Source: Archaeoglobus fulgidus DSM 4304
GTDB lineage: Archaea; Halobacteriota; Archaeoglobi; Archaeoglobales; Archaeoglobaceae
Direction: 5' to 3'
Assembly: GCF_000008665.1 (NCBI RefSeq)
Contig: NC_000917.1
Span: 840,001-872,000 of the forward strand
Length of the DNA: 32,000 bases
In this document: in pieces, positions 4,061 to 30,560 of the stretch
Numbering within the stretch: position 1 is the stretch's first letter
How the letters are laid out: every line of letters begins with the position of its first letter
Position numbers and translations under genes: made by a program
Notes under the pieces: generated by a model
The model's database searches: none
What the model was told of the DNA's origin: nothing
The model's input: only the letters and a program-made list of their open reading frames with translations

Positions 4061-4115
4061 GTTAAAATTTATACAACGAGAATTTAAAATTTTCGAGAAA
4101 ATTAAAAATGAAGGG

Positions 4116-11117: not shown

Positions 11118-11148
11118 ACAATCACCTCTCAGCCGCCTTACCATTTCG

Positions 11149-11162
11149 ATATATATTTTTTT
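11149..11162 (-). promoter_or_regulatory. Candidate glnA TATA/BRE
   Basis: The minus strand reads AAAAAAATATATAT, about 32-45 nt upstream of ATG 11117. That is compatible with a short SD-containing leader. Confidence 0.4.
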
Positions 11163-11295
11163 GCATTCAAGGGGATTTGTTAAATTACCTGCAGGCAAGC
11201 GTAGGTAAATCTGAAAAATCTTCACCAATTCTCAAATACATACCAATACAAACCAATTTTAACAACACAAATCCTCATGTATCCTGACGGTAAGG

Positions 11296-13081: not shown

Positions 13082-14214
13082 GGGGTAAGAGAGTCGTTCT
13101 TCCCGATAAGGATCACCAAGCCTGCGGTCTTTTCGGAGTTATAGACCGCAGTGGCAGGAGATTCAGTGGTGAGATGGCCATAAATGCCATGATAAACATG
13201 AAGGTGAGAGGAAACGGCCTTGGCGGTGGTTTTGCAGCTTACGGCATCTATCCTGAGTACAAGGACTACTACGCCCTTCACGTGATGTTCCAGGACTGGG
13301 ACATGGAGGCAAAGCACAGAGTTGATGAGTTTCTGGACGCAAACTTTGATGTTGTGTATGCAGAGGAGATTCCGGTCAATCCGGAAGCGAATGTGGCCTC
13401 ACCCCCGCTATTCTGGCGCTACTTCGTCTCGCCAAACAAGAAGGGGGATGAGAAGAAGCTCAGCGATGATGACTATGTTGTGAAGAAGGTTATGGAGATA
13501 AACACGAAGATTAACAACGCCTACGTCGTCTCATCGGGCAAGGACATGGGCGTTTTCAAGGGAGTCGGCTTCCCTGAGGACATTGCAGAATACTTCATGC
13601 TTGCTGAGGAATACAAGGGCTACATGTGGACGGCCCACTCCCGCTTTCCAACAAACACTCCCGGATGGTGGGGTGGTGCGCATCCATTCTGCATCCTCGA
13701 CTGGACTGTTGTTCACAACGGCGAAATCTCATCTTACGGCACGAACAAGCGCTACCTTGAGATGTTTGGCTATTACTGCACACTGCTTACAGACACAGAA
13801 GTGATGGCCTACGCAGTTGACTTACTCATGAGAAAGCAGGGGTTGCCCATCGAGATAGTCTCCAAGATTTTCGCCCCGCCAATGTGGGACCACATCGACA
13901 TAATGGACGAGAAAAAGAAGAAGTTCTACACCGCTTTAAGAATGAACTACGGACCTCTGCTGATAAACGGCCCCTGGACGATAGTTGTTGCGAGGCACGG
14001 AGAGATGTTTGGAATCACTGACAGAATAAGGCTCAGGCCCATAACCTCGGGAGAGAAGGGTGACCTGCTCTTCGTCTCATCCGAGGAGTCGGCAATCAGA
14101 GCTGTGTGTCCAGATCTGGACAGAGTTTACACGCCGATGGGTGGAGAGCCCGTCATTGGCAGGTTGAAAAGCAGGGAGAAGGAGCTGGCAAAGCAGCTTT
14201 CAGAGGTGGAATGA
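13078..14214 (+). CDS. Glutamate synthase, class-II (Ntn) glutamine amidotransferase subunit
   Basis: 'ACGLFGV' Ntn-Cys preceded by a 15-residue leader. Size and context match the archaeal split GltB domain 1. ATGA overlaps at both ends. Confidence 0.85.
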   Translation: MRGKRVVLPDKDHQACGLFGVIDRSGRRFSGEMAINAMINMKVRGNGLGGGFAAYGIYPEYKDYYALHVMFQDWDMEAKHRVDEFLDANFDVVYAEEIPVNPEANVASPPLFWRYFVSPNKKGDEKKLSDDDYVVKKVMEINTKINNAYVVSSGKDMGVFKGVGFPEDIAEYFMLAEEYKGYMWTAHSRFPTNTPGWWGGAHPFCILDWTVVHNGEISSYGTNKRYLEMFGYYCTLLTDTEVMAYAVDLLMRKQGLPIEIVSKIFAPPMWDHIDIMDEKKKKFYTALRMNYGPLLINGPWTIVVARHGEMFGITDRIRLRPITSGEKGDLLFVSSEESAIRAVCPDLDRVYTPMGGEPVIGRLKSREKELAKQLSEVE

Positions 14215-15746
14215 TGCTGGAGGGTGAATTTCACACTCACATGCTTCCCGAATTCATGATTGAAAGAAGACAGGACCGCTGCATACGCTGCAGAGTTTGC
14301 GAGAGGCAGTGCGGCTTCAACGTTCACTGGTATGATGAAGAAATGGACATGATGAGAGAGGACGAGATGAAGTGCGTCGGCTGTCAGAGGTGTGCTGTGA
14401 TGTGCCCGACAAACGCTCTTGTGGTGAAACCGCATCCCGGCAACTACAAACCCAACGCCAACTGGACGAGGGAAAGGCTGCAGGACTTGAAGAAGCAGGC
14501 TGAAACAGGAGGAGTCCTTCTCACTGGCTCGGGAAACGACAAGCCCTACAGAATCTACTGGGACCACATCGTGCTGAACGCCTCTCAGGTCACCAACCCC
14601 TCCATCGACCCGCTGAGAGAGCCGATGGAGCTGAGAACTTTCCTCGGCAGAAAGCAGGACAGGCTGGAGTTCAAGTACTCAGAAGACTTTGAGGATATAG
14701 AGATTACAACCGAGCTCTACCCCAACGTTCAGATTGAAACGCCGATCGTCTTCTCGGCCATGTCGTATGGAGCCATAAGCTATCAGGCATTCAAATCCCT
14801 TGCGATGGCCGCAAGCGAGTTTGGTACGCTTTTCAACACCGGAGAAGGCGGATTGCCCAAAGAGCTCAGGAAGTACGGCAAGAATGCCATTGTCCAGTGC
14901 GCAAGCGGTAGGTTCGGAGTCGATCCGGAGTACCTCAACGTTGCAGCGGTGGTTGAGATCAAGATAGGACAGGGGGCGAAGCCGGGAATTGGCGGTCACC
15001 TGCCGGGCGAGAAGGTCACTCTCCCCATCTCAGTCACCAGAATGATTCCTGAGGGGACAGATGCTCTCTCGCCCGCTCCTCAGCATGACATTTACTCCAT
15101 TGAGGATTTGAGCATGCTCATCTACGCCCTCAAGGAAGCGACGAACTACGAGAAGCCCGTGAGCGTTAAGATTGCAGCCGTGCATAACGTTGCAGCGATA
15201 GCGAGCGGTATGGTGAGGGCAGGAGCAGACATAATAGCCATTGACGGCCTGAGAGGAGGAACGGGGGCTGCACCGAAGATGATTAGGGATAATGTCGGTA
15301 TCCCCGTTGAGCTCGCACTCGCAGCAGTTGATCAGAGGCTGAGGGACGAGGGAATCAGGAACAAGGCCTCCATCCTTGTGGCTGGCGGTTTCAGGTGCAG
15401 CGCTGATGTTGTCAAGGCAATTGCCCTTGGTGCTGATGCGGTTTACATCGGAACTCCGGCTTTGGTTGCGATGGGATGCACCCTCTGCCAGAAATGCCAC
15501 ACGGGTATATGCAACTGGGGAATCTGCACCCAAGACCCCTACCTGGCAAAGAGGCTCAACCCGGAAATCACTGCAAAGAGGCTTGTTAACCTCCTGAGGG
15601 CGTGGAGTCACGAAATAAAGGAGATGCTCGGTGGGATGGGTATAAACGCCATAGAGAGCTTGAGAGGAAACAGGGAGCAGCTCCGCGGTGTTGGGCTTGA
15701 GGACTGGGAGCTTGAAGTTCTCGGAATAAAGGGGGCGGGAGAATGA
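14211..15746 (+). CDS. gltB: Glutamate synthase FMN/3Fe-4S (synthase) subunit with N-terminal 2x[4Fe-4S] ferredoxin domain
   Basis: Motifs 'CIRCRVCERQC' and 'CVGCQRCAVMCP'. These are followed by 'SAMSYGAIS', 'NTGEGG', 'QCASGRFGV', 'KIGQGAKPGIGGHLPG', 'IDGLRGGTGAAP' and 'CQKCHTGICNWGICTQDP'. Start set to ATG 14211 (ATGA overlap, GAGGTGG SD) rather than the ORF-track 14106. Confidence 0.9.
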   Translation: MMLEGEFHTHMLPEFMIERRQDRCIRCRVCERQCGFNVHWYDEEMDMMREDEMKCVGCQRCAVMCPTNALVVKPHPGNYKPNANWTRERLQDLKKQAETGGVLLTGSGNDKPYRIYWDHIVLNASQVTNPSIDPLREPMELRTFLGRKQDRLEFKYSEDFEDIEITTELYPNVQIETPIVFSAMSYGAISYQAFKSLAMAASEFGTLFNTGEGGLPKELRKYGKNAIVQCASGRFGVDPEYLNVAAVVEIKIGQGAKPGIGGHLPGEKVTLPISVTRMIPEGTDALSPAPQHDIYSIEDLSMLIYALKEATNYEKPVSVKIAAVHNVAAIASGMVRAGADIIAIDGLRGGTGAAPKMIRDNVGIPVELALAAVDQRLRDEGIRNKASILVAGGFRCSADVVKAIALGADAVYIGTPALVAMGCTLCQKCHTGICNWGICTQDPYLAKRLNPEITAKRLVNLLRAWSHEIKEMLGGMGINAIESLRGNREQLRGVGLEDWELEVLGIKGAGE

Positions 15747-16585
15747 AGTACTCTATTGGTGGTTTTTGCGACCTCTTCCTCGACTTCTGCAAAGGAATTG
15801 AGGACTTGCTTGACAGGGTCAAGGTGGAAGGCGATACGGCAGTAATCGACGCTAAAGGGCTGACGCACAAGGAGCTGAACGATTTGATGAGGTATGCTGT
15901 GGTTGAGAAGGGAGTGTCGAGGCTCAAGCTGCTGAACGTGATGGGGCAGAGATATATCGGGACGAGGCTCTACCTCCCGGACTCCAGAAAGGTAGAAATT
16001 GAAGTGCACGGCTTCCCAGGAAACGACCTCGGAGCGTTTCTCGCAGGGCACAAAATTGTGGTTTACGGCAACGCACAGGATGGAGTCGGAAACACGATGG
16101 ATGATGGAGAAATAATAGTTCACGGCAGGGCAGGAGATGTCGTGGCTATGGCGATGAGGGGAGGGAGGATCATGATTCGGGACGACGTCGGCTACAGAAC
16201 GGCAATCCACATGAAGGAGTACAAGGACAAGGTTCCGGTGCTGATAGTCGGCGGAACGGCTCAGGACTTCTTTGGGGAGTACATGGCGGGTGGAAGGGTT
16301 GTTCTTCTCGGTCTCAATCTCGGAGACAAGCCCCACAGAGCGCGGTACATAGGAACGGGCATGCATGGGGGAATAATGTACATCCGCGGAAAGGTGGAGC
16401 AGTGGCAGCTTGGCAAGGAGGTCGGCATCGTTGATATGGAAGAAGAGGACTGGAAGTTCCTCGAAAAACACATAGGAGACTTCTGCAAGGAGTTTGGTTT
16501 CGAGAAGGATGAGATACTCGGCGGCAAGTTCCTCAAGCTGAAGCCCGTCACGAAGAGGCCTTACGGCAGAATTTACGCCTATTAA
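15743..16585 (+). CDS. Glutamate synthase GXGXG (C-terminal beta-helix domain) subunit
   Basis: Motifs 'VYGNAQDGVGNTMDDGEIIVHGRAGDVVAMAMRGGRIMIRDDVG' and 'GEYMAGGRVVLLG'. ATGA overlap with the FMN subunit gene. Confidence 0.85.
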   Translation: MKYSIGGFCDLFLDFCKGIEDLLDRVKVEGDTAVIDAKGLTHKELNDLMRYAVVEKGVSRLKLLNVMGQRYIGTRLYLPDSRKVEIEVHGFPGNDLGAFLAGHKIVVYGNAQDGVGNTMDDGEIIVHGRAGDVVAMAMRGGRIMIRDDVGYRTAIHMKEYKDKVPVLIVGGTAQDFFGEYMAGGRVVLLGLNLGDKPHRARYIGTGMHGGIMYIRGKVEQWQLGKEVGIVDMEEEDWKFLEKHIGDFCKEFGFEKDEILGGKFLKLKPVTKRPYGRIYAY

Positions 16586-19399: not shown

Positions 19400-20065
19400 T
19401 TACATGAACATTTCCTTAACAAGCTTCTCCGCTCCATCACCCTCCCCGAAGTAAATGGCTTTTCCACCAACAAGAACGCAGGTTTTCTCCGACATAGGAA
19501 AGACCTCGTTTATTTCGTCGTGAGTAACAACCACCACCCCGCTCTTCTTTGAAGCTTCGTGAATTAGCTCAACAACTCTCCCCCTGACCTCCCTGAAGAG
19601 ACCCTGAAAGGGCTCGTCAAGAAGAAGGTATTTCGGATTGGAGATGAAAGCCCTCGCCAGCACCACCATCTGCCTCTCCCCACCGCTGAGCTTTCCAGCC
19701 CTCTTATTCGCCAGCGGCCTAAGCTCTGGAAAGAGCTCAAAGGCCCTCTCAACATCCCCAGCAATGGCGAGGTTCTCCTCAACTGTAAGCTTCTTCGCCA
19801 CCCTCAGCCTCTCAGGGGCCAAAGTTAAACCAAGCCTGAACCTCTCAGATGGTTTCAGCGCAGTCACATCTTCCCCATCAAGAAAAACCCTTCCCTCATG
19901 CTCCACCACCCCCATCATCGCCTTCAGCAGTGTGGACTTGCCGCTTCCGTTGGGGCCGAGAACAAGCATGATCTCTCTCCTCTCAACCCAACAGGTGACC
20001 TTTTTTAAAATCTCCCTCCCGTTAAGCTTTACACTGATATTCTCAGCCTTCAGCAAGCTTTCCAC
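19400..20065 (-). CDS. livF: ABC transporter ATP-binding protein (LivF-like)
   Basis: Motifs 'GPNGSGKST', 'LSGGERQM', 'YLLLDEP' and 'VTHD'. GTG start overlaps livG by 23 nt. Confidence 0.9.
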   Translation of the reverse strand: MESLLKAENISVKLNGREILKKVTCWVERREIMLVLGPNGSGKSTLLKAMMGVVEHEGRVFLDGEDVTALKPSERFRLGLTLAPERLRVAKKLTVEENLAIAGDVERAFELFPELRPLANKRAGKLSGGERQMVVLARAFISNPKYLLLDEPFQGLFREVRGRVVELIHEASKKSGVVVVTHDEINEVFPMSEKTCVLVGGKAIYFGEGDGAEKLVKEMFM

Positions 20066-20681
20066 CCCTCATCTCGTAGCTTTTGTCAGCTAAATCCCTT
20101 AAAAGCTTCATTCTGTGGGCGGTAATCAACGCTGGAACCCCCTCTTTCTTAATCTTCCTGAGAATCCTCCTGACTCTCCTCGCATTCTCCACATCAAGCC
20201 CCGAAAAGGGCTCATCGAGGAGCAAAAGCTTTGGCTGCATCGCTAAAGCCCTCCCGATTTCCAGCAACCTAAGCTCCCCCTGAGATAGCTTCCCCGCCCT
20301 CTCCTCCTTTAAAGCATCGAGCCCGACAAACTCGCAAATCTCCTCCGCCCTCTCCATTGCCTCTCTGTATCTCTTTGAGAGCAGAAGAGGTGTAGCAATG
20401 TTCTCCACAACGCTCAAATTCTTGAAGGGCCTTGAAATCTGAAAAACCATTGATATTCCCATTCTGGCAATTTTCTCCGCCTTCATCGCCGTTATGTCCT
20501 CTCCCTCAAAAATTATCCTCCCGCAGGTGGGCTTTTCAAGTCCGGCTATGATTTTCAGAAGTGTGGACTTACCGCTACCATTTGGCCCGAAAATTCCAAC
20601 AAATCCCTCTACCTCAAGATTTATTCCCCTCAACACCACATTTCCGTTGTAAACCTTTGAGAGGTCAATCACTCTGAGCAT
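20043..20681 (-). CDS. livG: ABC transporter ATP-binding protein (LivG-like, short)
   Basis: Motifs 'GPNGSGKST', variant signature 'LSQGELRLLEI', 'LLLLDEP' and 'TAHR'. Confidence 0.9.
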   Translation of the reverse strand: MLRVIDLSKVYNGNVVLRGINLEVEGFVGIFGPNGSGKSTLLKIIAGLEKPTCGRIIFEGEDITAMKAEKIARMGISMVFQISRPFKNLSVVENIATPLLLSKRYREAMERAEEICEFVGLDALKEERAGKLSQGELRLLEIGRALAMQPKLLLLDEPFSGLDVENARRVRRILRKIKKEGVPALITAHRMKLLRDLADKSYEMRGGKLAEG

Positions 20682-21522
20682 TCCACCACCTGCTCAGCTT
20701 TGGGGAGAGAATGAGCACCGCAGCGTAAAGCAAGAGATGGGCTTCAGGCAGCACTCCCGAAAAGGCCCTTGAAACCACCACAACAACGTAGCTACCAACT
20801 ACAGGCGAAATCAGCCTTTTTCCTGCAATTAGAGTTGCTATGTAGGGAAGCAGAGCAACCTCCATCGAGAAAATTTCAGGCGAGGCATGGCCGAAGTAAA
20901 GCAGGTAGCAAACCCCAGCCAGAGTTGCCAATATCACGGAAATCAGAAAGCTCACAGCCCTGATTTTCAAAACGTCAATTCCCACCGCCCTCGCAGCGAC
21001 CTCATCATCCCTAACAGCCTCGATTTTAAGGCCGAGAGCCGACCTCTTTACTGCCATCAGGAAAAAAACCGTAAGAGTCAAAAGAAGGGAGGCGAGGAGG
21101 TAGGAGTTAAGGAGGCCAATTGATGTAAAGCCAAAACCCTCCTCACCACCAACCATTTCCCCATTTTTCTCAACTACGATGTAGTGGGAGAGGTACCAGA
21201 AAATGACTGCCGTGAAAAAGGTTGCAAAGGGAAAGTTCTCTCTGCCGAGTCTACTCAAGCCAAGAAAGATGAGGAGAGAGGCAACGACTGAGAGTAAAAT
21301 CAGGAAGGGATTTATGGCAAGGCAGTAGGCTGCGAGGCCAAAGGGGATTGAGTGAGAAAGACTGACCCAGCCTGCCCTTCTCTCCATGAAGTACCATGAA
21401 AGCGATAGGGTGGAGTAAATCATCGCCAAAGCTGCAACCGATACTGCAAAGCTGCTCTGAAAGGTTGCTGGCAGAAGAATCAGAAGGGCGAGGAGCAGCA
21501 ATTCTGCCTTCAGGGCAACCAC
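20665..21522 (-). CDS. livM: ABC transporter permease (LivM-like)
   Basis: Polytopic hydrophobic 285-aa ORF. GTG start overlaps livH by 13 nt. Position matches a LivHMGF-type operon. Confidence 0.85.
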   Translation of the reverse strand: MVALKAELLLLALLILLPATFQSSFAVSVAALAMIYSTLSLSWYFMERRAGWVSLSHSIPFGLAAYCLAINPFLILLSVVASLLIFLGLSRLGRENFPFATFFTAVIFWYLSHYIVVEKNGEMVGGEEGFGFTSIGLLNSYLLASLLLTLTVFFLMAVKRSALGLKIEAVRDDEVAARAVGIDVLKIRAVSFLISVILATLAGVCYLLYFGHASPEIFSMEVALLPYIATLIAGKRLISPVVGSYVVVVVSRAFSGVLPEAHLLLYAAVLILSPKLSRWWNAQSD

Positions 21523-22235
21523 CCCACCAGAATTGAGTAGGCGAGGGCGATGGGGAAGGTTGCTGCGTACTTCCTGAAGGTGTTGCCCGCTGCTGCTGCA
21601 AGTGACGCTACAATTACTGCAACAACCATAACGCTCCAGCCCATCGCCGGATGAAGGATGTGGGTGGGGGAAAGCAAAGCACCATTCAGGCAGACCAAAG
21701 CCGACGAAAGAGATACAGCAATAAGCCTTATTCTTTCCGTCCTGACTCCGTAAATCTCCGCCAACTCCCAGTCCTCCTCCATGAACTTCAGCTCAAGCCC
21801 TCTTCTTGAATTCAGTATCAGGCCAAAAACCACGAGAAGAGAAGATAAAACAGCAGCATTCAGGATTTCGTGGATTTCCAGAGTCTCCCCATAAAATTCT
21901 AAGTAGCTCGCCTCCACAATCTGATAGTAGGCACTTCTGAATAGAATTCTGAGTAGCTCCTCAATGGCAATGGCAAATCCCAGAGATACCACGGTAGCCT
22001 CGCCCACAGACAACCTTTCAGTTAACTTCGAAAGTATGGCACCAACCAGAAATCCTGCCAGAAGTGATGCAAGCACAGATAGCTCCTCAACTGCAAGGTA
22101 GAGGTAAGCTCCCAGCGTAAAGAGGGATGCAAAGGTGAGGTTCAGCATTCTGCCGAGCTTGTAGTTCAGGATTACTGCAGAGGCGAAAAAGGATAAAAAA
22201 ATTGCTGTAAAAACTGCTGAAATCATTCCGGCCAC
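21510..22235 (-). CDS. livH: ABC transporter permease (LivH-like)
   Basis: Polytopic hydrophobic ORF of about 240 aa. The start is GTG 22235, or ATG 22226 (ATGA overlap with the SBP stop). Confidence 0.85.
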   Translation of the reverse strand: MAGMISAVFTAIFLSFFASAVILNYKLGRMLNLTFASLFTLGAYLYLAVEELSVLASLLAGFLVGAILSKLTERLSVGEATVVSLGFAIAIEELLRILFRSAYYQIVEASYLEFYGETLEIHEILNAAVLSSLLVVFGLILNSRRGLELKFMEEDWELAEIYGVRTERIRLIAVSLSSALVCLNGALLSPTHILHPAMGWSVMVVAVIVASLAAAAGNTFRKYAATFPIALAYSILVGWLP

Positions 22236-23395
22236 ACTACTTGTGAGGTGGCAAATTCGGGCGGATAAACAACTTCCACTTTGCCGTTAACGAACTCTCC
22301 AATCGTTCCCTTCAGCTCCTCGCTTCCCCAGAGCGCCTGATGGTTTTCGTTAAACCTGTAAATCCCAGCAGCTCCCTTAAAGCTTCCTGATTCAAGCGTT
22401 TCGATAAGCTTCTCCTTTCCACCCTTTTCGAAGGCCTGCGAGAGAATCATTATGGAGTCGTAGGTGAGCAGCCCTGCGTAGTTGTTGGCATCTTCCCCAA
22501 ACTTTGCTTTGTAGTCGGCAAAGTACTTGGCAGTTAAATCGGTTTTCTCCGTCTCTTCAAGCGCAGCGGCCTGAAAGGCAGTGTAGCCAGCATTGAGCTT
22601 TTTCAGAGTTGCGGGCAAAGCGAGGGCACCTCCAACAGAGTAAATTATGCCTTTACCCCCATTCGCCCTGTACTCCTTCAGGAAGTTAATTGAAACTCCT
22701 CCGGGGTCACCAAGGATTATTGCATCCCTCTCGCCAGCCCTTTCAGCAATCTGCTTCGCAACATTCTTGTAGTCATCAGGCGAGACGCTTGGAGACTTGT
22801 AGTAAACCTCCAGCTCAGGCTCTCCATACAGCTCATTGATTTTTGCGAGCATTCCCTGATTGAAGGTTTTCAGCGGGTCGTAGCCGACGAAGTAGTATTT
22901 ATCTGGCTTCGATAAGCTGAGAAACTCAGCAGCCAGAACACCCCAGTATGTGGTGTTGTAAGCAGTTCTGAAAACGTACCTGTTCCCCTCTGTAACCTTC
23001 TTCTCTATCACACCCGTCGATGCCACGCTAACCAGATAAACAACCTTGTTTTCCCCAGCAGCATCGGCAACAACCATTGCCTGCGGGCTTGAGTATGCCC
23101 CAACAACAGCATCAACCTTCTGTGAGACTAAATACTCAAAGGCAGTTTTCGCCTTTTCTGGAGAGTCGCCGCAGTCGGCAAAAACAAGCTCGACATTACC
23201 GGCATGCTCAGCAGCAAGCTCAGCAGCATTCTTCATCGCAACTCCGGCGGAGGAATAAAGGCCAGTTTCGGGGATGAGAACTCCAACCTTTATTTTCTCC
23301 TCAGGTTGGGGCTGGGTAGGTTGAGCGGGTTGTGTGCAACCAAGGATAAACACAGTCAATAAAATAAGGGAAAATACAACTCTAAAATCTTTCAC
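22223..23395 (-). CDS. livJ: Type-I periplasmic-binding-fold substrate-binding lipoprotein (LivJ/Peripla_BP_6-like)
   Basis: Signal/lipobox 'LILLTVFILGC', then a 'TQPAQPTQPQPEE' linker. 'KVGVLIPETGLYSSAG' is typical of Liv-type SBPs. GTGA overlap with the hydratase gene. Confidence 0.88.
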   Translation of the reverse strand: MKDFRVVFSLILLTVFILGCTQPAQPTQPQPEEKIKVGVLIPETGLYSSAGVAMKNAAELAAEHAGNVELVFADCGDSPEKAKTAFEYLVSQKVDAVVGAYSSPQAMVVADAAGENKVVYLVSVASTGVIEKKVTEGNRYVFRTAYNTTYWGVLAAEFLSLSKPDKYYFVGYDPLKTFNQGMLAKINELYGEPELEVYYKSPSVSPDDYKNVAKQIAERAGERDAIILGDPGGVSINFLKEYRANGGKGIIYSVGGALALPATLKKLNAGYTAFQAAALEETEKTDLTAKYFADYKAKFGEDANNYAGLLTYDSIMILSQAFEKGGKEKLIETLESGSFKGAAGIYRFNENHQALWGSEELKGTIGEFVNGKVEVVYPPEFATSQVVWPE

Positions 23396-24171
23396 TCCCT
23401 CTCCCTCCTGAAGTCAGCTTTCCTTTTCTCCACGAAGGCCTTTATCCCCTCTTCCGCATCGGGAGATGAGAAGGAGAGGGCGAAGAGGTCCCTCTCATAC
23501 ATTATACCATCTCTCAGCCCCATCTTGAAGCCCCTGTTCACGGCCTGCTTAACCAGCATTACTGCGTAGGGAGACTTGCTCTTGATGACCTCTGCCATCT
23601 TTTTTGCTTCATCCATCAACTTATCGTGCTCCACAACCTTATTTACCAAGCCGAGCCTGTAGGCTTCCTCTGCGGAGATTCTCTCTCCCGTGAGGCAGAG
23701 CTCCATGGCCTTCTTCCAGCCCACTATCCTGGCAAGCCTCTGCGTTCCTCCCGCTCCGGGAATGATGCCGAGGTTAATTTCAGGCTGACCGAAGCTCGCC
23801 CTCTCGCTTGCTATTATAATATCACACGCCATCGCAATCTCACAGCCCCCACCAAGGGCAAAGCCGTTTATGGCTGCTATCACCGGCACCTCCAAATCCT
23901 CCATCTCCTCAAGAACTTTGCCGAGCTCCTCAATTGTGCTTCTCGCAACAAAATGGGAGGATTCAGAGAACATCTTTATGTCCGCTCCAGCACAGAAGGC
24001 CTTCCCCTCTCCAGTGAGGACGATAACTCTCACAGTCTTGTTGTTCCTCGCATAATCAACGACTTCTCTCAGCCCTTTAACGAAGTCCTTGTTTATAGCG
24101 TTGAGCGCTTCGGGACGGTTGAACTTCACCCACAGAACTCCGTCTTCCTCTCTGTATTCAACTGCAGCCAT
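23392..24171 (-). CDS. Enoyl-CoA hydratase (crotonase family)
   Basis: Motifs 'GEGKAFCAGADIK', 'GGGCEIAMACD' and 'PEINLGIIPGAGGTQRL'. Both catalytic Glu positions are present. Confidence 0.9.
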   Translation of the reverse strand: MAAVEYREEDGVLWVKFNRPEALNAINKDFVKGLREVVDYARNNKTVRVIVLTGEGKAFCAGADIKMFSESSHFVARSTIEELGKVLEEMEDLEVPVIAAINGFALGGGCEIAMACDIIIASERASFGQPEINLGIIPGAGGTQRLARIVGWKKAMELCLTGERISAEEAYRLGLVNKVVEHDKLMDEAKKMAEVIKSKSPYAVMLVKQAVNRGFKMGLRDGIMYERDLFALSFSSPDAEEGIKAFVEKRKADFRRERE

Positions 24172-24175
24172 AATT

Positions 24176-25360
24176 TCACGTCCTGTAGCTCTTCGGCATG
24201 CCGAGGATGTGCTCCGCTATGAAGTTCAGCGCCATCTGCTGCGTCACTGGAGCGAGGCGAATCAGATTGATTTCTCTCCACCACCTCTCCACGTCGTACT
24301 CTTTAGCGTAGCCGTAGCCGCCGAAGGTCTGCATTGCCCAGTAAACCGCCTTAATGCCAGCCTCAACAGCCACAGCTTTAGCCATGTTGGCAGCAGCCCC
24401 AACTTCTCTGTAGTGTGCCCCCTGATCAAAGAGAGTTGCTGCCTTGAAGTTCATCAGTTCCGCACATTCGAGGGTAGCGTAAGCCTCAGCTAAGGGGAAC
24501 TGCAGGCCCTGATAGCTCCCGATGGGGTCTGCAAAAACCTTGCGCTGCTTTGAATACTCAACAGCCTTGCTTATTGCCAATCTGCTGATGCCGATGGCAG
24601 CAGTTGTGAAGCTCATTCTTTCAGGGTTGAGTGTGTCGAGCAGGTGATACCACCCGCCATCGAGGGGCGGGATGAGGGCGTTTTCAGGCAGTCTCAAATT
24701 GTTGAAGCTCACCTCGCAGGTCTTTGAGTAGTTTATCCCGTGCTTTGGAATTGGGTTAACCTTAACTGCATCGTTGGGAAGATCAGCAAGGAAAAGGCTT
24801 ATGCCGTGAGTTTTCTTCTCAGCCTTCTCCCTCGGCGTCGTTCTGGCGATGATGAGCATTCCCTTCGCCCTGTCCGCCCCGCTGATGAAAATCTTGTTTC
24901 CGTTTATAACCCACTCGTCACCATCCTTCACGGCAGTGGTTCTTATTGCCAAAGTGTTTGTGCCCGCATCAGGCTCCGTTAAGGCCATGCAGAACTCCAT
25001 CTCCCCCTTGGCAATCTTCGGCAAATACTTCTCTTTGTGCTCCTCAGTTCCGTGTCTGACGATGGTAAGGGCACCAAAAACCTCCGTCAGAACCATGTAC
25101 CAGACTCCAGCCATCCCGCAGCCGTTGGCAGCGAGCTCTTCCATTGCAATGAGCAGCTCTGTCATCCCGTAGCCGCCACCACCGTATTCCTCTGGAATAA
25201 CAATGCCCATGAAGCCCGCATCGCTTATCGCCTTGAAAAACTCCTCCGCAAACTCACCATTCTCCTCCTTCTCCCTCCAGTACTCGGGCGGAAAGTCCTT
25301 TGCAATGTCTCTCGCAGCGTTTGCAATCATTCTCTGCTCTTCGCTAAGCTCAAAATTCAT
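24176..25360 (-). CDS. Acyl-CoA dehydrogenase
   Basis: ACAD N/M/C domain pattern is present ('FCMALTEPDAGTN', 'INGNKIFISGA', 'QTFGGYGYAKEYDVERWWRE'). GAGGTGA SD lies upstream. Confidence 0.9.
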   Translation of the reverse strand: MNFELSEEQRMIANAARDIAKDFPPEYWREKEENGEFAEEFFKAISDAGFMGIVIPEEYGGGGYGMTELLIAMEELAANGCGMAGVWYMVLTEVFGALTIVRHGTEEHKEKYLPKIAKGEMEFCMALTEPDAGTNTLAIRTTAVKDGDEWVINGNKIFISGADRAKGMLIIARTTPREKAEKKTHGISLFLADLPNDAVKVNPIPKHGINYSKTCEVSFNNLRLPENALIPPLDGGWYHLLDTLNPERMSFTTAAIGISRLAISKAVEYSKQRKVFADPIGSYQGLQFPLAEAYATLECAELMNFKAATLFDQGAHYREVGAAANMAKAVAVEAGIKAVYWAMQTFGGYGYAKEYDVERWWREINLIRLAPVTQQMALNFIAEHILGMPKSYRT

Positions 25361-25377: not shown

Positions 25378-25848
25378 TTAAAGGGGCTTGAAGTAGAGGA
25401 TGTCGGTGATTTTGCCCTCTCTTTCCTCCTTTGGCTTCAGAACGGGCTTTACCTTCATCCCCACCTCAACCTGCTCTGGCTCCACCTCGCCGAGTAGGTG
25501 GATGAGACAACCATCAGTGCCGTCAATGTCAATTACAGCGTAAATCTCGGGCTTCTCAAGCGGGTTCTCGTAGGCGTCGAGCCTTGCAACGGTGAAGGCT
25601 CTCACACATCCCTCCCCACTAACCTCCACAAACTCAGTATCGCTGAAGTCCTTCTCGCAGTAGATGCGGGGCGGGAAGTAAACCTTTCCGCACTTTTTGC
25701 ACTTCGCTGCAATAAACTTCTCCTCATCCTTCAGTTTCTTGAAGAACTCGTCTCCCGCTTTGCCGCTTGTGTAAATCCAGTAAAGCTCTATTTTACCATC
25801 CCAGTGCCTCAACTCCTTGGGATTAACAATCTTCTCTATCATCTTCAC
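25378..25848 (-). CDS. DUF35 protein (Zn-ribbon + OB fold), copy 2
   Basis: 'CKKCGKVYFPPRIYCEKD' ribbon (Cys3 + Asp). OB-fold C-terminus 'GMKVKPVLKPKEEREGKITDILYFKPL'. GTG 25848 (GTGA overlap) or ATG 25842 could be the start. Confidence 0.8.
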   Translation of the reverse strand: MKMIEKIVNPKELRHWDGKIELYWIYTSGKAGDEFFKKLKDEEKFIAAKCKKCGKVYFPPRIYCEKDFSDTEFVEVSGEGCVRAFTVARLDAYENPLEKPEIYAVIDIDGTDGCLIHLLGEVEPEQVEVGMKVKPVLKPKEEREGKITDILYFKPL

Positions 25849-26375
25849 CCCTCCAACGGCTTCCAGTACTTAATGTCTGTAATCGCTCCCTCCCTCTCCT
25901 CTTCGCTCTTCCACACTGCTTTGACCTTCATTCCGATGTAAACGTCCTCAGGCTTCACTTCATCGAGAATGTGCATGATTCCCATGTGCGGTGAGGCTCC
26001 ATCTATGGAAATCACTGCAACAATAACCGGCTCAGGCAGTGGCCTCGCATCGGGGTCGATGTAGGATATAGAGAAGGTCTCAACCGTCCCCGTATCTTTA
26101 AGCTCAACCCATCCGTCGATGGGCTTGTAGCAGAGCTCACAGAACATTCTGGGTGGAACCATAACTCTACCGCACTTGTTGCACTTCACACCCAAAATTT
26201 TGCCCTCCTTCAGGCCGTTAAGAAACTTGCTTATCGCCTGTCCTGCAGTCCACGAGTAGCGGATGTCAGGGTGGTCCTCAACGTAGGTAACCCTCTTTTC
26301 CTTGATATCCGCATCGCTTAGCGGTGTGCCTTCAGCATAGGGAGGGCACTCAATATCCTTTTTGCCTACAGCCAT
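25845..26375 (-). CDS. DUF35 protein (Zn-ribbon + OB fold), copy 1
   Basis: 'CNKCGRVMVPPRMFCELC' (Cys4). C-terminus 'GMKVKAVWKSEEEREGAITDIKYWKPL'. Start set to ATG 26375 (MAVGKKD...), 4 nt after the upstream stop and behind GAGGTGA. The ORF-track start at 26414 would overlap by 35 nt. Confidence 0.8.
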   Translation of the reverse strand: MAVGKKDIECPPYAEGTPLSDADIKEKRVTYVEDHPDIRYSWTAGQAISKFLNGLKEGKILGVKCNKCGRVMVPPRMFCELCYKPIDGWVELKDTGTVETFSISYIDPDARPLPEPVIVAVISIDGASPHMGIMHILDEVKPEDVYIGMKVKAVWKSEEEREGAITDIKYWKPLEG

Positions 26376-26379
26376 CCTA

Positions 26380-27582
26380 TCACCTCTTGTTAGACATAAC
26401 CATAACAGTTCCAACCTGCATCAGGTCTCCCCATGCCTGACATACTCCTGTTGTGACTTCCTTCGCCACCTGTCTCTTTCCAGCCCTGTAGGCGAGCTGC
26501 CAGTAGATTTCGCACGCCTTAACACCCATTGTAGCTGCAATTGGATTTCCAACACCAAGCAGACCTCCTGACGGGCAGGTGGGCAAGTCACCGTCTCTCT
26601 GCGTAACTCCTTCCCTTGTCAGAATTGGAGCCTCACCTTTCTTCGCCAATCCCAATCCCTCCATGTGGTGCAGCTCCTTGTAGTCGAAGGGGTCGTAGGG
26701 TTCAGCAACGTCAATCTCCTTTCTTGGGTCAGTGATGTGGGCCATCCTGTAAGCCATCTTCGCAGCCTCAGCCACATAGCGCGGGAAGTAGAGGTCTCTG
26801 TTGGTCCACCAGGTCGTGTCGAGGGCCCAGCCAACTCCCGTCACCCAGACTGGGTTGTCGGTTAGCTGCCTCGCAATGTGCGGGGCGACCATTATCAGCG
26901 CTGCAGCTCCGTCTGATGGCGGTGAGACGTCGAGCCTTCTCACGGGCAATGCCATCGGCTCGCTGTTGAGAACATCCTCAACAGTAATCTTTTCCGCCAC
27001 CTGAGCACACGGATGATCCAAAGCATTTGCCTTGTTCTTGACAGAAACCAAAGCGATATCCTCGTGCTTTATGTTGTGGACGTGCATGTATCGGCGCATT
27101 TCGAGTGCGAAAATCCATATCAGGTTGGGGTTAAGCGGGCGGTCGAGGATGGGGTCCCAGATGTACTTGAAAGCCGACTGGGGATGGGGATGGACTGAAG
27201 ACATCTTCTCCTCGCAAACGACAAGGCAGACATCAGCTAAACCGCTTGCAACGTGCCAGTAGCCAGCGATTGGGGCAAAGACTCCAGTTCCACCACCGAC
27301 GAAAACTCTCATGTAAGGGCGGTTACTCCCACCAGAGCCGTCGAGCAGGTACTCTCCCTTCATGTGGAAGCCATCGAAGGCGTCTGGTGCAGAGCCCATC
27401 ACCACCATCTCAATGTCGTCAATCGTAAGGCCAGCCTCCTCTAAAGCCTGCTTTACAGCAAGGTAGCTCAGCTCTCTTCCCGTTTCATTGAGCCTCCTCT
27501 TGAAGGTGGTCATTCCCGCTCCTACAATGGCCACATCCTGCTTCTTGTGAAACTTCAAACCGCTTATCCTCTCAACTTCCAT
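26380..27582 (-). CDS. Thiolase-fold (SCP2-thiolase-like) protein B lacking canonical catalytic residues
   Basis: Motifs 'DVAIVGAGMTTF', 'LTDNPVWVTGVGW', 'CPSGGLLGVGNPIAATMG' and 'RAGKRQV'. Start set to ATG 27582 (MEVERISG...), behind the GGTGGTG SD. The track start at 27603 is a TTG. Confidence 0.85.
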   Translation of the reverse strand: MEVERISGLKFHKKQDVAIVGAGMTTFKRRLNETGRELSYLAVKQALEEAGLTIDDIEMVVMGSAPDAFDGFHMKGEYLLDGSGGSNRPYMRVFVGGGTGVFAPIAGYWHVASGLADVCLVVCEEKMSSVHPHPQSAFKYIWDPILDRPLNPNLIWIFALEMRRYMHVHNIKHEDIALVSVKNKANALDHPCAQVAEKITVEDVLNSEPMALPVRRLDVSPPSDGAAALIMVAPHIARQLTDNPVWVTGVGWALDTTWWTNRDLYFPRYVAEAAKMAYRMAHITDPRKEIDVAEPYDPFDYKELHHMEGLGLAKKGEAPILTREGVTQRDGDLPTCPSGGLLGVGNPIAATMGVKACEIYWQLAYRAGKRQVAKEVTTGVCQAWGDLMQVGTVMVMSNKR

Positions 27583-27592
27583 AACCACCACC

Positions 27593-28759
27593 TTACACAC
27601 CAAAAACTGCTACAGCACCGCTGTGCGTCGGCAGGTAGCGCCATGCCTGAGCCACTCCAACCTCCACATCGCTAAGCTGCCTCTTGCCCGCTTCACCGCG
27701 AAGCTGCAGAACCACCTCTAAAGCTTTCTGCCCTCCTGTGCACTCCAGCAGATTGCCAACTCCCAGACTTCCTCCAGAAACGTTTACCGGCTTGGCACCA
27801 TCCCTGTCGAAGTAGCCCTCAGCCATAAGCCTTGCAACGTCGAATTTGCCAGCAAGCTGCAATGCTTCGATGTGCTGCATCTCCTTGAAGGCAAACCTGT
27901 CGTCAACCTCAGCAAAGTCCACCTCCTTGGCGGGATTGGCTATTCCCGCCATCTTGTAGGCCATCTTTGCTGCCTTGTAGGCATACATTGCAGAGAAGCT
28001 CGCAGTATCGTAGCCGTAGGTTTCGCTCCACCATCCAATTCCCTTAACCCAGACTGGGTTGTCTGTCAGCTTCCTCGCCACCTCATCGCTTGCAAGGACA
28101 AAGACAACACAGCCGTCAGCAAGAGGAGCTATTTCCATCTTTTTCATGGGGTCAAAGAGCTTAGGGCTCGCCATGACGTCGTCAAGAGTTACGTTTGCAG
28201 CGTAAGGGGCTGCAGGATTGAGCAGGGCGTTGTTCTTGTTCTTCACTACAACCCTTGCCACGTCTTCCTCGCTGAGACACCTCTCAGCCATGTACTGGAA
28301 CATTTCGAGAGCAGCGAGGTAATATGGATGGGCATTTCCAACGTTCCTCAGCCATATCGGGTCCATCGCAAACTTAACAACATTGCCAAATGTCTGAATG
28401 TCACTCGCCTTGCTGTGGGCTTCAACAACTGCGATGTCCGCCAGCCCACTGTTTATGTGCATGTATGCCGTCGCAACGCCATAGAGGAAGTCTGCCGTTA
28501 CGGTGCACGTCGGCTTCACCACCGCTCCGAGCTGGTCCGGGACGAACTCGTCGAAAATGGCAAAGCCCTCGTATATGTCCTCAGCACACGTTACAAAGCT
28601 GTCCACATCCCTGCGCGGATTTATGCCAGCATCGGTGTAGGCTCTGACCGCAGCCTCGTACATAATTTCTTTCCAGCTCAGGTCGGGCGTGGTGGAGTTG
28701 AAACCCGCATAACCAACTCCCACAACAGCTACCATTCCATCACCAATTATTCTTTGCAT
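27593..28759 (-). CDS. Thiolase-fold (SCP2-thiolase-like) protein A lacking canonical catalytic residues
   Basis: Motifs 'VAVVGVGYAGF', 'LTDNPVWVKGIGW', 'VNVSGGSLGVGNLLECTG' and 'QLRGEAGKRQ'. An alternative start at ATG 28735 (MVAVVGVG...) lies behind GGTGAT. Confidence 0.85.
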   Translation of the reverse strand: MQRIIGDGMVAVVGVGYAGFNSTTPDLSWKEIMYEAAVRAYTDAGINPRRDVDSFVTCAEDIYEGFAIFDEFVPDQLGAVVKPTCTVTADFLYGVATAYMHINSGLADIAVVEAHSKASDIQTFGNVVKFAMDPIWLRNVGNAHPYYLAALEMFQYMAERCLSEEDVARVVVKNKNNALLNPAAPYAANVTLDDVMASPKLFDPMKKMEIAPLADGCVVFVLASDEVARKLTDNPVWVKGIGWWSETYGYDTASFSAMYAYKAAKMAYKMAGIANPAKEVDFAEVDDRFAFKEMQHIEALQLAGKFDVARLMAEGYFDRDGAKPVNVSGGSLGVGNLLECTGGQKALEVVLQLRGEAGKRQLSDVEVGVAQAWRYLPTHSGAVAVFGV

Positions 28760-28763
28760 TTCG

Positions 28764-28860
28764 TTAATACTTAAATTTTACGTAATGTGCCGATTTAAAA
28801 ATAGATAATCCGCCTGTACCGAATTTGTTCCAATTAATACTTGATATATTCAATTTTTAC
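28764..28860 (-). promoter_or_regulatory. A/T-rich promoter/operator region of the 11-gene operon with duplicated TTAATACTT...TTTTACG modules
   Basis: TTAATACTT occurs at 28764-28772 and 28834-28842. TTTTACG occurs at 28776-28782 and 28854-28860. The palindrome TTACGTAA lies at 28778-28785. A TATA-like TTTTTAAAT (minus strand) lies around 28793-28801. Confidence 0.35.
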
Positions 28861-28924
28861 GCGTTTAGATTTTTCATTTGCTCTCGTAATTAATTATTGA
28901 CATTAAAGCTAAATACAGTACGCT

Positions 28925-28962
28925 AAAAACAGCGTGTTAAAAACAAAAATATAAAAATAAAA
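28925..28962 (-). terminator. Run of oligo-T tracts (plus a small ACGCT/AGCGT hairpin) after the symporter gene
   Basis: The minus strand after stop 28965 reads AAATTTTTATTTTTATATTTTTGTTTTTAACACGCTGTTTTTAGCGT, containing five T5 tracts. Confidence 0.5.
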
Positions 28963-28964
28963 AT

Positions 28965-30560
28965 TTAAACCTCCTTGGTCAGCTCAACGCAGTACTTCTG
29001 TACAGCCTCCTCCTCAACGGGCTTGGTTATGAGAGACACGATGATGAACAGCAGGAAGCCCACTGGAATTGCCCAGACTTGGTGTGGCGTAATCAGGGCC
29101 TTTGCGTTGCCAAACAGCACGTCGTTGAGGAAGAAGAAGGCATGATGCCCGAGCACGAGCTTTGCCTTCAGCCATGCGTAGAGGTGCAGTGGGGTCATGA
29201 CTATTGCTGTTGTCCACATCGCCGCTCTCGTTGCCCTCTTCCACCACAGTCCCAGCACAAGTCCTGGACCGAGGGCGGAGATGATGACGACGAATGCCCA
29301 TCCTGACAGGTCAAGCACAAGTCCCGGCGGGTTGATGGCAACGAGGAATCCCACGATCAGGAATATTACTGAGATTATCCTGGCCAGAGTCACCGGCTTC
29401 TCCTTAGCAAACTTGCTCTTCAGAAGCATGTCTCCCCAGTCCCTTGTCAGAAGAGTGTTGACAACCATAACCCATCCTGCTGCAGTTGACATTGCAATTG
29501 CTAAACCGCCAGCACAGAGGATACCGAGAACCCATGGATTCTGTAAGGCCTCAACTGCTGCAATCATTGAGTAGTCAGTCCACCCTCCAACTCCATACTG
29601 GGCCATGTAGCTCTGAAGGATTTTGACCGCATTGGCTCCCTCTCCTCCCATCGGGCCTGTTTCAATCATAAGCTTTGAGGCAGCACCGATAATTTCCAGA
29701 GCCATGTAGAAAATGCCTGCAGCGAGAGTGCACCAGAAAATGCTTCTTCTTGCGGTCTTGATGTCCATGGTTGTGAAGAACCTCACGACGGTGTAGGGCA
29801 TCGTTGCGAATCCGTAGTGCCAGACGAAGAACCAGCCAATAACTGCAATCCACGTTCCGCTGAGGAGGTGGGGTGGCTCAGGGTCGCTCGGGGTGTTCCA
29901 GAACTTGGGATTGTTGGCCAAAACAGCCTCGTAAAATCCTCCAAGTCCTCCGAGCTTGATAACAATTACTGCAGCAGCAATAACTGCAGCAACAGTCATC
30001 AGGAACGCCTGGAAGGCAGCGTTCCAGCTCGTTGCTATCATTCCGCCCCACACAACGTAGAGCATCACTATAATCGTTCCAACTATCAGTCCAATGATGT
30101 AGGGCACTTTTGCGACAGCTAACAGGAAGAGGGCCATACCCACAAGCGAGAGCGTTATGTAGAGCACCGCACCAATCACTGTAACTATACCCACAAGCCA
30201 TCTGAGCCTCTGGTCGTTGTACCTGTCAGCGTAGTAGTCAGCAAAGCTTGTTGGTGCGTACTTTCTCAGTGCTGATGCTGTCAGCAGAGTTGCAATGGGC
30301 ATTCCAGCAATTATGGCCGACATCGCCCACCAGAAGGGGTAGCCGAGGATGAAGATGTATGCCGGTAGTCCGAGCATCGAAGCAGGGCTCAGGTAAGTAG
30401 ATTCCAGTGCAAGACCGTTAACAACAGCGCCAACCTGCCTTCCAGCAACGTAGTAGTCTGTAGCGCTCTTCAGCCTTTGCCTCGAATAGTATCCTATTAT
30501 AATTATGGCCAGGAAGTACAGCACTGTAATTCCTATGACCGGTGCCTCCACCTGAGCCAT
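28965..30560 (-). CDS. Sodium:solute symporter family permease (VC_2705/ActP-like large subunit)
   Basis: 531-aa polytopic protein with an SSF-like pattern ('YYVAGRQVG', 'GMIATSWNAAFQ'). TAATG overlap with the upstream DUF4212 gene. Confidence 0.88.
   Translation of the reverse strand: MAQVEAPVIGITVLYFLAIIIIGYYSRQRLKSATDYYVAGRQVGAVVNGLALESTYLSPASMLGLPAYIFILGYPFWWAMSAIIAGMPIATLLTASALRKYAPTSFADYYADRYNDQRLRWLVGIVTVIGAVLYITLSLVGMALFLLAVAKVPYIIGLIVGTIIVMLYVVWGGMIATSWNAAFQAFLMTVAAVIAAAVIVIKLGGLGGFYEAVLANNPKFWNTPSDPEPPHLLSGTWIAVIGWFFVWHYGFATMPYTVVRFFTTMDIKTARRSIFWCTLAAGIFYMALEIIGAASKLMIETGPMGGEGANAVKILQSYMAQYGVGGWTDYSMIAAVEALQNPWVLGILCAGGLAIAMSTAAGWVMVVNTLLTRDWGDMLLKSKFAKEKPVTLARIISVIFLIVGFLVAINPPGLVLDLSGWAFVVIISALGPGLVLGLWWKRATRAAMWTTAIVMTPLHLYAWLKAKLVLGHHAFFFLNDVLFGNAKALITPHQVWAIPVGFLLFIIVSLITKPVEEEAVQKYCVELTKEV

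Follow-up and report, generated by a model that had tools for sequence, protein, structure and literature searches.

What can a pair of thiolase-like proteins do once both have lost the residues that make a thiolase? The question is raised by a 32,000-nt stretch of the genome of Archaeoglobus fulgidus DSM 4304 (NC_000917.1 positions 840,001–872,000; hereafter, the window), in which a cassette of four genes at window positions 25378–28759 encodes two thiolase-fold paralogues, which we denote A and B, and two DUF35 proteins, which we denote DUF35-1 and DUF35-2. A first-pass annotation, made from the sequence alone, had proposed that the four products form a C–C lyase acting on CoA esters without thiolysis. 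Here, we report a computational analysis of the cassette, its orthologues and its genomic neighbours. We find that the cassette very probably encodes a heteromeric, non-thiolytic unit; as a more tentative reading, which we put forward as a working model, the unit may be a retro-aldol-type lyase in which B would be catalytic and A auxiliary. The gene calls of the first-pass annotation, coordinates and strand alike, are confirmed:

27593–28759, minus strand: subunit A (AF_0968, ‘acaB-10’), 388 amino acids; Pfam Thiolase_C_1; exact match to AAB90275.1/O29294
26380–27582, minus strand: subunit B (AF_0967, ‘AcaB-9’), 400 amino acids; Pfam Thiolase_N and Thiolase_C_1; AAB90276.1
25845–26375, minus strand: DUF35-1 (AF_0966); Pfam zf-ChsH2 and OB_ChsH2_C; AAB90277.1
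25378–25848, minus strand: DUF35-2 (AF_0965); Pfam zf-ChsH2 and OB_ChsH2_C

Residue numbers of A refer to the 388-residue form. Its true start is probably the ATG at 28735, giving 380 residues, because GGTGA lies just upstream and most orthologues are 380 residues long; RefSeq lists both lengths.

A and B were guessed to be labelled as 3-ketoacyl-CoA thiolases, and exact-sequence look-ups agree; their database names otherwise go no further than ‘thiolase domain-containing protein’ and ‘acetyl-CoA C-acetyltransferase’. A matches the NCBIfam equivalog model NF004722 (PRK06066) with 608 bits against a cutoff of 516, and B matches NF004721 (PRK06065) with 755 bits against 455; both models are titled only ‘thiolase domain-containing protein’ and carry no functional name. 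By sequence, the nearest solved relatives of both subunits are the archaeal thiolases of Pyrococcus furiosus (7YVY), S. tokodaii (ST0096, 4YZO) and M. thermolithotrophicus (6ESQ), followed by BbsB, PhlC, SCP2-thiolases, Ltp2 (6OK1) and Sal (9MYR). An AlphaFold2 (AF2) model of A (predicted local distance difference test score, pLDDT, 82) adopts the thiolase fold, with TM-scores of 0.77–0.89 to the archaeal thiolases 7YVY, 4YZO and 6ET9 in Foldseek, whose ranking agrees with that by sequence in placing archaeal thiolases at the top. As a side observation, 4YZO, named a ‘thiolase-like protein’, has Ser (NTSGSG) at the nucleophilic Cys and keeps the HD.. and GHP motifs; this further archaeal thiolase paralogue is probably not a thiolase.

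To locate the catalytic positions, we used profile–profile alignment (hhalign) to a canonical archaeal thiolase encoded beside HMG-CoA synthase (L007:5294-6466, minus strand), which carries NACASS, HDCF and GHP. The nucleophilic Cys corresponds to T88 in A and G97 in B, HDCF to D286-D-R-F in A and Y296-D-P-F in B, and GHP to G-N336(-L) in A and G-N346-P in B. Both subunits therefore lack the nucleophilic Cys of the CxS elbow as well as the His of HDxF and the His of GHx, and neither is a canonical thiolase. These substitutions had been read by eye in the first-pass annotation, and the profile alignment bears them out: the quoted motif strings are all present, and the codons are correct (Thr88 of A at 28496–28498 and Gly97 of B at 27292–27294). 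A second register, in which phmmer placed D90 of A at the Cys position, was dropped because it requires a gap in the following helix, whereas the T88 register is ungapped.

Comparison of 82 unique B orthologues with 185 unique A orthologues separates the two subunits. In B, the segments G96-G97-G98-T99 (with G97 inside an invariant GGGTG), Y296-D297-P298-F299 and G345-N346-P-I are conserved in 82 of 82 sequences, several further catalytic-loop positions are equally fixed, and all the invariant residues examined lie in, or adjoin, catalytic loops. A, in contrast, varies at exactly the three catalytic positions: residue 88 is Cys in 51% of orthologues (94/185), Ser in 25%, Thr in 15% and Ala in 6% (Ser, Thr, Ala, Asp and Gly together making up 49%); residue 286 is Asp in 88%, Cys in 6%, Glu in 4% and His in a single sequence; and residue 336 is Asn in 68%, Tyr in 23% and Asp in 7%. 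Other parts of A are fixed, including D287 and F289 (around 100%), C58 (98%, 181/185, with Ala or Ser in the other four), the nearly invariant D90, H115, S116 and K117, an acidic loop (residues 58–78), E113, H144 and W373-R374. Mean column identity is 80% for B versus 66% for A, and identity across groups is 68–77% for B and 57–63% for A. Because the catalytic loops of B are invariant and A varies where a thiolase is catalytic, we take the working active site to be, in all likelihood, that of B, with A a partner whose own site has degenerated; the Cys at the nucleophile site in half of the A orthologues is, by this comparison, a relic. The motif T-A-D-F that had been assigned to A is thus right as regards Thr88 here and does not hold as a family feature, Thr at this position apparently being specific to the A. 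fulgidus strain. Cys85 of A, which had been named as a residue that might overturn the proposal, is present in just 56% of A orthologues.

The substitutions in B recall those of two thiolase-fold retro-aldolases. In Ltp2, Tyr294 of the Y294DHF motif serves as the base and Tyr344 as the acid, and in Sal (CtSal) the corresponding roles fall to Tyr302 of Y302DCY and to Cys304; in both enzymes the Tyr motif replaces HDCF, and a Gly stands at the former Cys site, where its backbone NH binds the β-hydroxyl (Sal paper). B has both features, the Gly (G97) and the base Tyr (in the invariant Y296DPF), whereas A has Thr, Cys, Ser or Ala at the first position and DDRF at the second. The proposal of retro-aldol chemistry thus fits B by its Gly and Tyr; it does not extend to A, which lacks the Tyr, and B itself is without either of the known general acids. 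The canonical thiolase, B, Ltp2 and Sal all have a spacing of 50 residues from HDCF to GHP, which places Asn346 of B opposite Tyr344 of Ltp2 and Gln352 of Sal; the equivalence of general-acid sites between B and the two aldolases rests on this constant spacing together with phmmer ranges. We consider retro-aldol chemistry plausible for B, a reasonable assignment that stops short of establishing membership in the Ltp2/Sal family, and A more likely to be an auxiliary subunit than a second lyase. In this model, the backbone of Gly97 and Tyr296 would act from the positions used by Ltp2 and Sal, and B would cleave, or reversibly form, the C2–C3 bond of a short or branched 3-hydroxyacyl-CoA, with acetyl- or propionyl-CoA as one product and an aldehyde or ketone as the other. 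The part played by A would be structural, or would lie in shaping the substrate, in the manner of the chain-length factor in ketosynthase–chain-length factor (KS-CLF) pairs.

The four genes are kept together well beyond A. fulgidus. B-specific peptide patterns identified 499 loci in GTDB species representatives, and synteny was assessed in the best 80 of these 499 loci together with eight metagenomic loci, 70 of the sampled loci being long enough to hold all four genes. By tblastn, the order A–B–DUF35-1–DUF35-2 is found in 67 of the 70; A lies farther upstream in two of the exceptions, and in the third both DUF35 genes are upstream on the opposite strand. The median gaps between successive genes are −4, +2 and −1 nt. 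An earlier count by open reading frame (ORF) calling, which gave 45 complete cassettes in 68, suffered from antisense-ORF artefacts and is superseded by the tblastn result. The archaeal carriers are Archaeoglobi, Thermoplasmatota, four Asgard phyla, Bathyarchaeota, Theionarchaea, Methanofastidiosia, one Methanomassiliicoccales metagenome-assembled genome (MAG) and one Nitrososphaeria MAG; the bacterial carriers are Bipolaricaulota/Acetothermia, Fraserbacteria and one Anaerolineales MAG. A 679-residue protein (P0037) that joins A (residues ~1–345) to B (from ~64), with both junction regions missing, was considered as a natural A–B fusion and left unused as evidence; as a single unsourced record, it probably reflects chimeric assembly or recombination between the paralogues.

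The two DUF35 proteins combine a zinc ribbon with an OB fold; both domains, the rubredoxin-like PF12172 ribbon with its four metal ligands and the PF01796 OB fold, score above the Pfam cutoffs in each protein. They belong to distinct families that are 41% identical. DUF35-1 has an N-terminal extension of around 50 residues and a Cys4 ribbon that is conserved in 70 of 70 orthologues; its sequence matches in the PDB are SSO2064 (3irb), the M. thermolithotrophicus DUF35 protein (6esq_E) and Shy-DUF35 (9myr_B). DUF35-2 matches 3irb, 9myr_B and 6esq_E, and its ribbon ligands are C50/C53/C64/D67 (Cys3Asp), with the Asp in all 24 Archaeoglobi-type sequences and Cys4 in 53 others. This Cys3Asp ribbon could matter for specificity, because in the DUF35 partner of Sal it is a Cys3His ribbon that shapes the substrate cleft. 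The solved Sal–Shy(DUF35) complex is an αββα assembly with one DUF35 per thiolase-fold protomer. Given this precedent and the two distinct DUF35 families, one dedicated DUF35 per protomer seems likely: A and B would form a heterodimer, each protomer capped by its own DUF35, giving A·B·D1·D2 or a multiple thereof, and the complex would be incapable of 3-oxoacyl-CoA thiolysis.

In A. fulgidus, the cassette is continuous with further genes, and a transporter gene lies upstream of A:

24176–25360, minus strand: acyl-CoA dehydrogenase (ACAD) Acd-6 (AF_0964, O29298), with the Pfam ACAD N, M and C domains
23392–24171, minus strand: crotonase-type enoyl-CoA hydratase Fad-3 (AF_0963); Pfam ECH_1, 7e-79
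19400–23395, minus strand: LIV-type ABC importer (AF_0962–0959), with Peripla_BP_6 and overlapping ORFs, contiguous with the operon (binding protein, 22223–23395; permeases, 21510–22235 and 20665–21522; ATPases, 20043–20681 and 19400–20065)
28965–30560, minus strand: sodium:solute symporter (AF_0969); Pfam SSF

The top NCBIfam model for Fad-3 is a short-chain enoyl-CoA hydratase, and the gene order of the LIV importer is kept in other Archaeoglobaceae loci. AF_0969 matches the VC_2705, PutP, ActP and MctC types of NCBIfam weakly, in each case below the cutoff, and is separated from A by an AT-rich spacer of 205 nt (28760–28964). The genes downstream from A overlap or lie no more than 17 nt apart: the ATG of B is 10 nt past the stop of A and is preceded by the Shine–Dalgarno-like GGTGGTGG, the ATG of DUF35-1 is 4 nt past the stop of B, and the GTG start of DUF35-2 overlaps the stop of DUF35-1.

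RNA-seq data published for A. fulgidus compare 2-methoxyphenol with lactate in a medium containing yeast extract; the log2 fold changes are 3.0 for AF_0959, 3.9 for AF_0962, 3.5 for AF_0963, 3.2 for AF_0964, 2.8 for both AF_0965 and AF_0966, 3.1 for both AF_0967 and AF_0968, and 2.7 for AF_0969. The co-induction of these genes argues for a single co-regulated unit whose role is catabolic or assimilatory. The first-pass view of the four genes as a unit is thereby upheld by their order in 67 of 70 loci, their very small gaps and the joint induction of AF_0963–0968 (log2 2.8–3.5), and synteny, translational coupling and co-expression together support the predicted formation of an A/B/DUF35 complex. 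Of the two Hbd genes in the same data, Hbd-1 changes by 1.8 and Hbd-2 by −0.2, so that Hbd-2 is not co-induced. The authors of the RNA-seq study link the induction, along with a similar response on H2/CO2, to lipids and amino acids being co-assimilated; in a published table, AF_0963, AF_0964 and AF_0967 are lowered during CO-acetogenic growth.

What, then, might the substrate be? We counted genes within around 10 kb of the cassette at 86 non-redundant loci. ACADs are the most frequent (44/86), followed by a two-subunit CoA-transferase (27/86), an AMP-forming CoA ligase (23/86) and a crotonase-type hydratase (19/86). BKACE (10/86, nine of them Asgard), 2-oxoacid:ferredoxin oxidoreductase (10/86) and methylmalonyl-CoA mutase (9/86) come next; 3-hydroxyacyl-CoA dehydrogenase (HADH) and an HpaB/AbfD-family protein, possibly a 4-hydroxybutyryl-CoA dehydratase, occur at five loci each, canonical thiolase at four, and aldehyde:ferredoxin oxidoreductase at three, two of them Asgard. 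At one locus (L035) the last of these genes lies directly 3′ of the cassette, which fits an aldehyde product. In the 32-kb window itself, neither the ORF list nor Pfam contains an HADH. AF_0964 has its catalytic Glu at the isovaleryl-CoA dehydrogenase (IVD) position (‘LNPER’) and none at the Glu376 site of medium-chain acyl-CoA dehydrogenase (MCAD), an arrangement found in 32 of 47 cassette-linked ACADs, AF_0964 included. An IVD-type ACAD would suit 3-branched substrates, because hydration would then give a tertiary alcohol that cannot be oxidized, the same logic that applies to Ltp2. Assignment of the ACAD as a glutaryl-CoA dehydrogenase was rejected, the similarity being secondary only and the catalytic Glu being at the IVD position. 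The CoA-transferase is closely homologous to glutaconate CoA-transferase (β subunit versus 1POI_B, 5e-60), with the catalytic Glu54 kept; a reading of these genes as AibA/AibB 3-methylglutaconyl-CoA decarboxylases was likewise discarded, because the β subunit gives 5e-60 against GctB but 2e-14 against AibB, and because it retains Glu54. Overall, the neighbours point to short or branched acyl-CoA metabolism without fixing the substrate, which the adjacent ACAD, and the hydratase where present, would supply to B.

Several observations weigh against a retro-aldol role. The general acid is missing from both subunits: B has Pro298 at the site of Sal Cys304 and Asn346 at that of Ltp2 Tyr344, and the corresponding residues of A are R288 and N336. 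A and B are nearer to archaeal thiolases than to Ltp2 and Sal in both sequence and fold, and the match in Gly and Tyr may therefore be convergent or coincidental. The AF2 model of B, built from a low-diversity alignment of 18 sequences, has a pLDDT of 60.6 and is unusable for pocket inspection. The genomic argument is also mixed. The first-pass annotation had reasoned from an operon that has an ACAD and an enoyl-CoA hydratase and lacks an HADH; such a dehydrogenase is indeed seldom found close to the cassette, but the hydratase is absent from 67 of the 86 neighbourhoods, and four loci have a canonical thiolase together with an HADH within 10 kb. At two loci (L075 and L081) the order thiolase–HADH–crotonase–ACAD runs directly upstream of the cassette. 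Finally, the frequent glutaconate-type CoA-transferase partner implies no obvious aldolase substrate.

That transferase bears on another explanation, under which the unit would decarboxylate a carboxy-acyl-CoA (for example, malonyl-, methylmalonyl- or glutaconyl-CoA) through a retained thioester oxyanion hole and with no nucleophile, by analogy with KS-CLF (Cys to Gln) and TbSLP. TbSLP, a Cys-less, SCP2-thiolase-like protein with YDCF, slowly decarboxylates malonyl-CoA, but CtSal does not (Sal paper). The glutaconate CoA-transferase homologue adjoins the cassette at 27 of 86 loci; the bacterial loci, however, have the transferase and no ACAD. The ACAD shows secondary similarity to the non-decarboxylating glutaryl-CoA dehydrogenase, although AF_0964 lacks a Glu at the glutaryl-CoA dehydrogenase position. 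Several Archaeoglobaceae have adjacent genes for methylmalonyl-CoA mutase, epimerase and carboxyltransferase, which suits a decarboxylase, yet nothing at the level of residues speaks for decarboxylation rather than aldol chemistry, and we consider this explanation unlikely.

The pattern of conservation speaks to a different possibility, that the proteins are a catalytically dead scaffold or a hub binding CoA esters, which would assemble other enzymes such as the ACAD, the hydratase and reductases or channel between them. Such a hub would account for the disappearance of all canonical catalytic residues from both subunits, and a ketothiolase/DUF35 complex is a demonstrated assembly hub that nucleates fatty-acid-synthase assembly in S. 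acidocaldarius. Moreover, the most conserved loops of A (residues 62–75 and 123–142) have low confidence in the monomer model, as expected of interfaces. B, however, is 68–77% identical across archaeal phyla and bacteria and has invariant residues in every catalytic loop, an unusually strict constraint for a scaffold, and the neighbours available for scaffolding change from lineage to lineage; a dead hub thus seems improbable. Least credible is a true thiolase or acyltransferase with a relocated or retained Cys in A (Cys58 or Cys88) and a new acid/base such as D90 or H115: the near-invariance of Cys58 (181/185) and of D90, H115, S116 and K117, the Cys at position 88 in 94 of 185 orthologues and the lining of the substrate cleft in Sal by the β2–α2 loop containing residue 58 (Sal paper) speak for it, but neither Cys is invariant (58 is Ala or Ser in four orthologues; 88 is non-Cys in 49% and Thr here), the oxyanion/base His positions are lost across the family (the His286 equivalent survives in 1/185 A sequences) and B has no invariant Cys, C336 being Asn in a Bathyarchaeota sequence (L001) and in L007.

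We therefore return to the retro-aldol model, of which a bolder version can be drawn. The cassette might be a self-contained enoyl- or 3-hydroxyacyl-CoA lyase with which anaerobic archaea, including Asgard lineages, could take C2 or C3 units off CoA esters with neither a dehydrogenase nor a thiolase. A might contribute a new site, of hydratase type or for substrate gating, from its invariant D90/H115/S116/K117, B would carry out the aldol cleavage, and the aldehyde or ketone would pass to aldehyde:ferredoxin oxidoreductase, with re-activation by the adjacent CoA-transferase or ligase. This scheme is speculative, and we think it doubtful as a whole.

Related arrangements were seen around some of the sampled loci. 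In Asgard archaea, a second, paralogous Cys-less thiolase-like pair adjoins the main cassette and BKACE genes (plus strand; L037:16636-18946, L043:15774-18087, L050:16923-19273, L052:15814-18127 and L072:16982-19309); one member carries YDAF/SNP and the other G...YEPT/NP, and two more DUF35 genes follow where the locus extends far enough. The architecture of a heterodimer plus two DUF35 proteins seems to have radiated. A Theionarchaea locus has a third Cys-less thiolase-like gene directly 3′ of the cassette, encoding 426 residues with Gly at the nucleophile site, FAPY for HDCF and an AHP that keeps the His, and this gene has its own DUF35 of 242 residues (L002:11759-13773, plus strand). Seven bacterial carrier loci (L056, L062, L073, L076, L077, L078 and L083) share a conserved 332-residue protein encoded divergently, immediately upstream of A (for example, L083:7178-8176, minus strand), for which Pfam and NCBIfam gave no match; HdrB/C-like, malic-enzyme-like and PanB-like genes lie close by, as judged by inspection of the sequences, and no ACAD is present at the Bipolaricaulota and Fraserbacteria carrier loci. 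In A. fulgidus, outside the window, the adjacent AF_0201 and AF_0202 (AcaB-5 and AcaB-6) may be another paired unit; their expression is low and unchanged.

Elsewhere in the window are features that are separate from the cassette:

5388–8498, minus strand: secreted protein of 1,036 residues that has a linker rich in Thr and, by Pfam (5e-10), a PGF-CTERM signal for sorting by archaeosortase
4116–5321 and 3002–4147, after the preceding gene: coiled-coil, membrane-anchored proteins of no known family
8779–9177 and 9146–9589, minus strand: overlapping HepT-like RNase (HEPN) and nucleotidyltransferase (MNT) genes, a type VII toxin–antitoxin-like module adjoining glutamine synthetase (9669–11228)
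13078–16585, plus strand: archaeal split glutamate-synthase-like set of three consecutive overlapping genes (GATase_2, ferredoxin-fused Glu_synthase FMN domain and GXGXG), preceded by a 4Fe-4S protein and a pyridine-nucleotide-disulphide oxidoreductase

As for what the cassette means for annotation, reconstructions of β-oxidation, butyrate metabolism and fatty-acid synthesis count these genes as thiolases, which the sequence evidence indicates they are not. A preprint counts ketothiolase/DUF35 pairs across archaea, Asgard included, as potential capacity for fatty-acid synthesis, and does not address catalytic residues. Literature searches on DUF35, thiolases and archaea, on retro-aldol chemistry, on the AF tags and acaB names and on Rv3521–3523 returned no published characterization of the cassette and no mention of its missing catalytic residues; in line with the first-pass statement that no system of two distinct thiolase-like and two distinct DUF35 subunits is known to be characterized, we found none. 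If the bolder version of the model is true, many archaeal ‘acetyl-CoA acetyltransferase/DUF35 pairs’ that genome reconstructions now credit to β-oxidation or fatty-acid synthesis are mis-assigned, and if B is an aldolase, thiolase-fold aldolases would reach from steroid-degrading bacteria to the core metabolism of anaerobic archaea in a new heteromeric architecture. The model is directly testable, the operon being inducible in a cultivable organism, at around eightfold higher levels on 2-methoxyphenol than on lactate.

Comparison with known systems places the cassette as a widespread, mis-annotated and heteromeric form of the thiolase-like/DUF35 theme, and new as such. The steroid side-chain aldolase Ltp2–ChsH2(DUF35) of T. 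curvata (6OK1) and the bile-acid aldolase Sal–Shy(DUF35) of C. testosteroni (9MYR) resemble it in having an SCP2/archaeal-type fold without the Cys, and share with B the Gly at the nucleophile site and the Tyr at the His position of HDCF. The T. brucei protein TbSLP (PDB 5AB4-7), which is also Cys-less and has YDCF, is a proposed aldolase (Sal paper). Ltp2 and Sal have an obligatory DUF35 partner encoded alongside and act after an ACAD and a hydratase without an HADH, and the cassette is alike in its genes. In contrast to the cassette, however, with its two thiolase-like subunits and two free-standing DUF35 proteins, Ltp2 and Sal are homodimers with one type of DUF35, fused to a MaoC hydratase, and their hosts provide a steroid context, whereas the hosts of the cassette are anaerobic archaea without a steroid pathway.

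The ltp3 and ltp4 genes of mycobacteria and rhodococci, which are genetically required for removal of C24-branched sterol side chains and are proposed aldol-lyases, form a neighbouring pair of thiolase-like ‘lipid-transfer protein’ genes, with the conserved hypothetical gene Rv3521 next to them, a comparison drawn by gene adjacency; their actinobacterial steroid context differs from that of the cassette. The adjacency of Rv3521–Rv3523 is on record in the literature. The archaeal thiolase/HMG-CoA synthase (HMGCS)/DUF35 complexes join two different thiolase-superfamily subunits through DUF35, as proposed here, and among solved structures it is their thiolase that A and B resemble most in sequence and in fold; at one locus (L007), the cassette divergently adjoins such an operon. 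Unlike the cassette, these complexes have an active Cys in the thiolase-type subunit, a single DUF35 and an HMGCS-like second subunit. Saci_1121/1120 of S. acidocaldarius, which represents the ketothiolase/DUF35 pairs used in archaeal β-oxidation and fatty-acid synthesis, and the benzoylsuccinyl-CoA thiolase BbsAB (7PXP) belong to the same superfamily branch and are tandem thiolase-type and DUF35 proteins that form α2β2 assemblies, but they are active thiolases with one subunit type each, whereas A and B have lost all three thiolase motifs. KS-CLF, from type II polyketide synthases, pairs two thiolase-fold paralogues as a heterodimer, and one of the two has lost the nucleophile. There, one subunit is still a Cys enzyme and no DUF35 takes part, whereas in the cassette both subunits are without the catalytic set.

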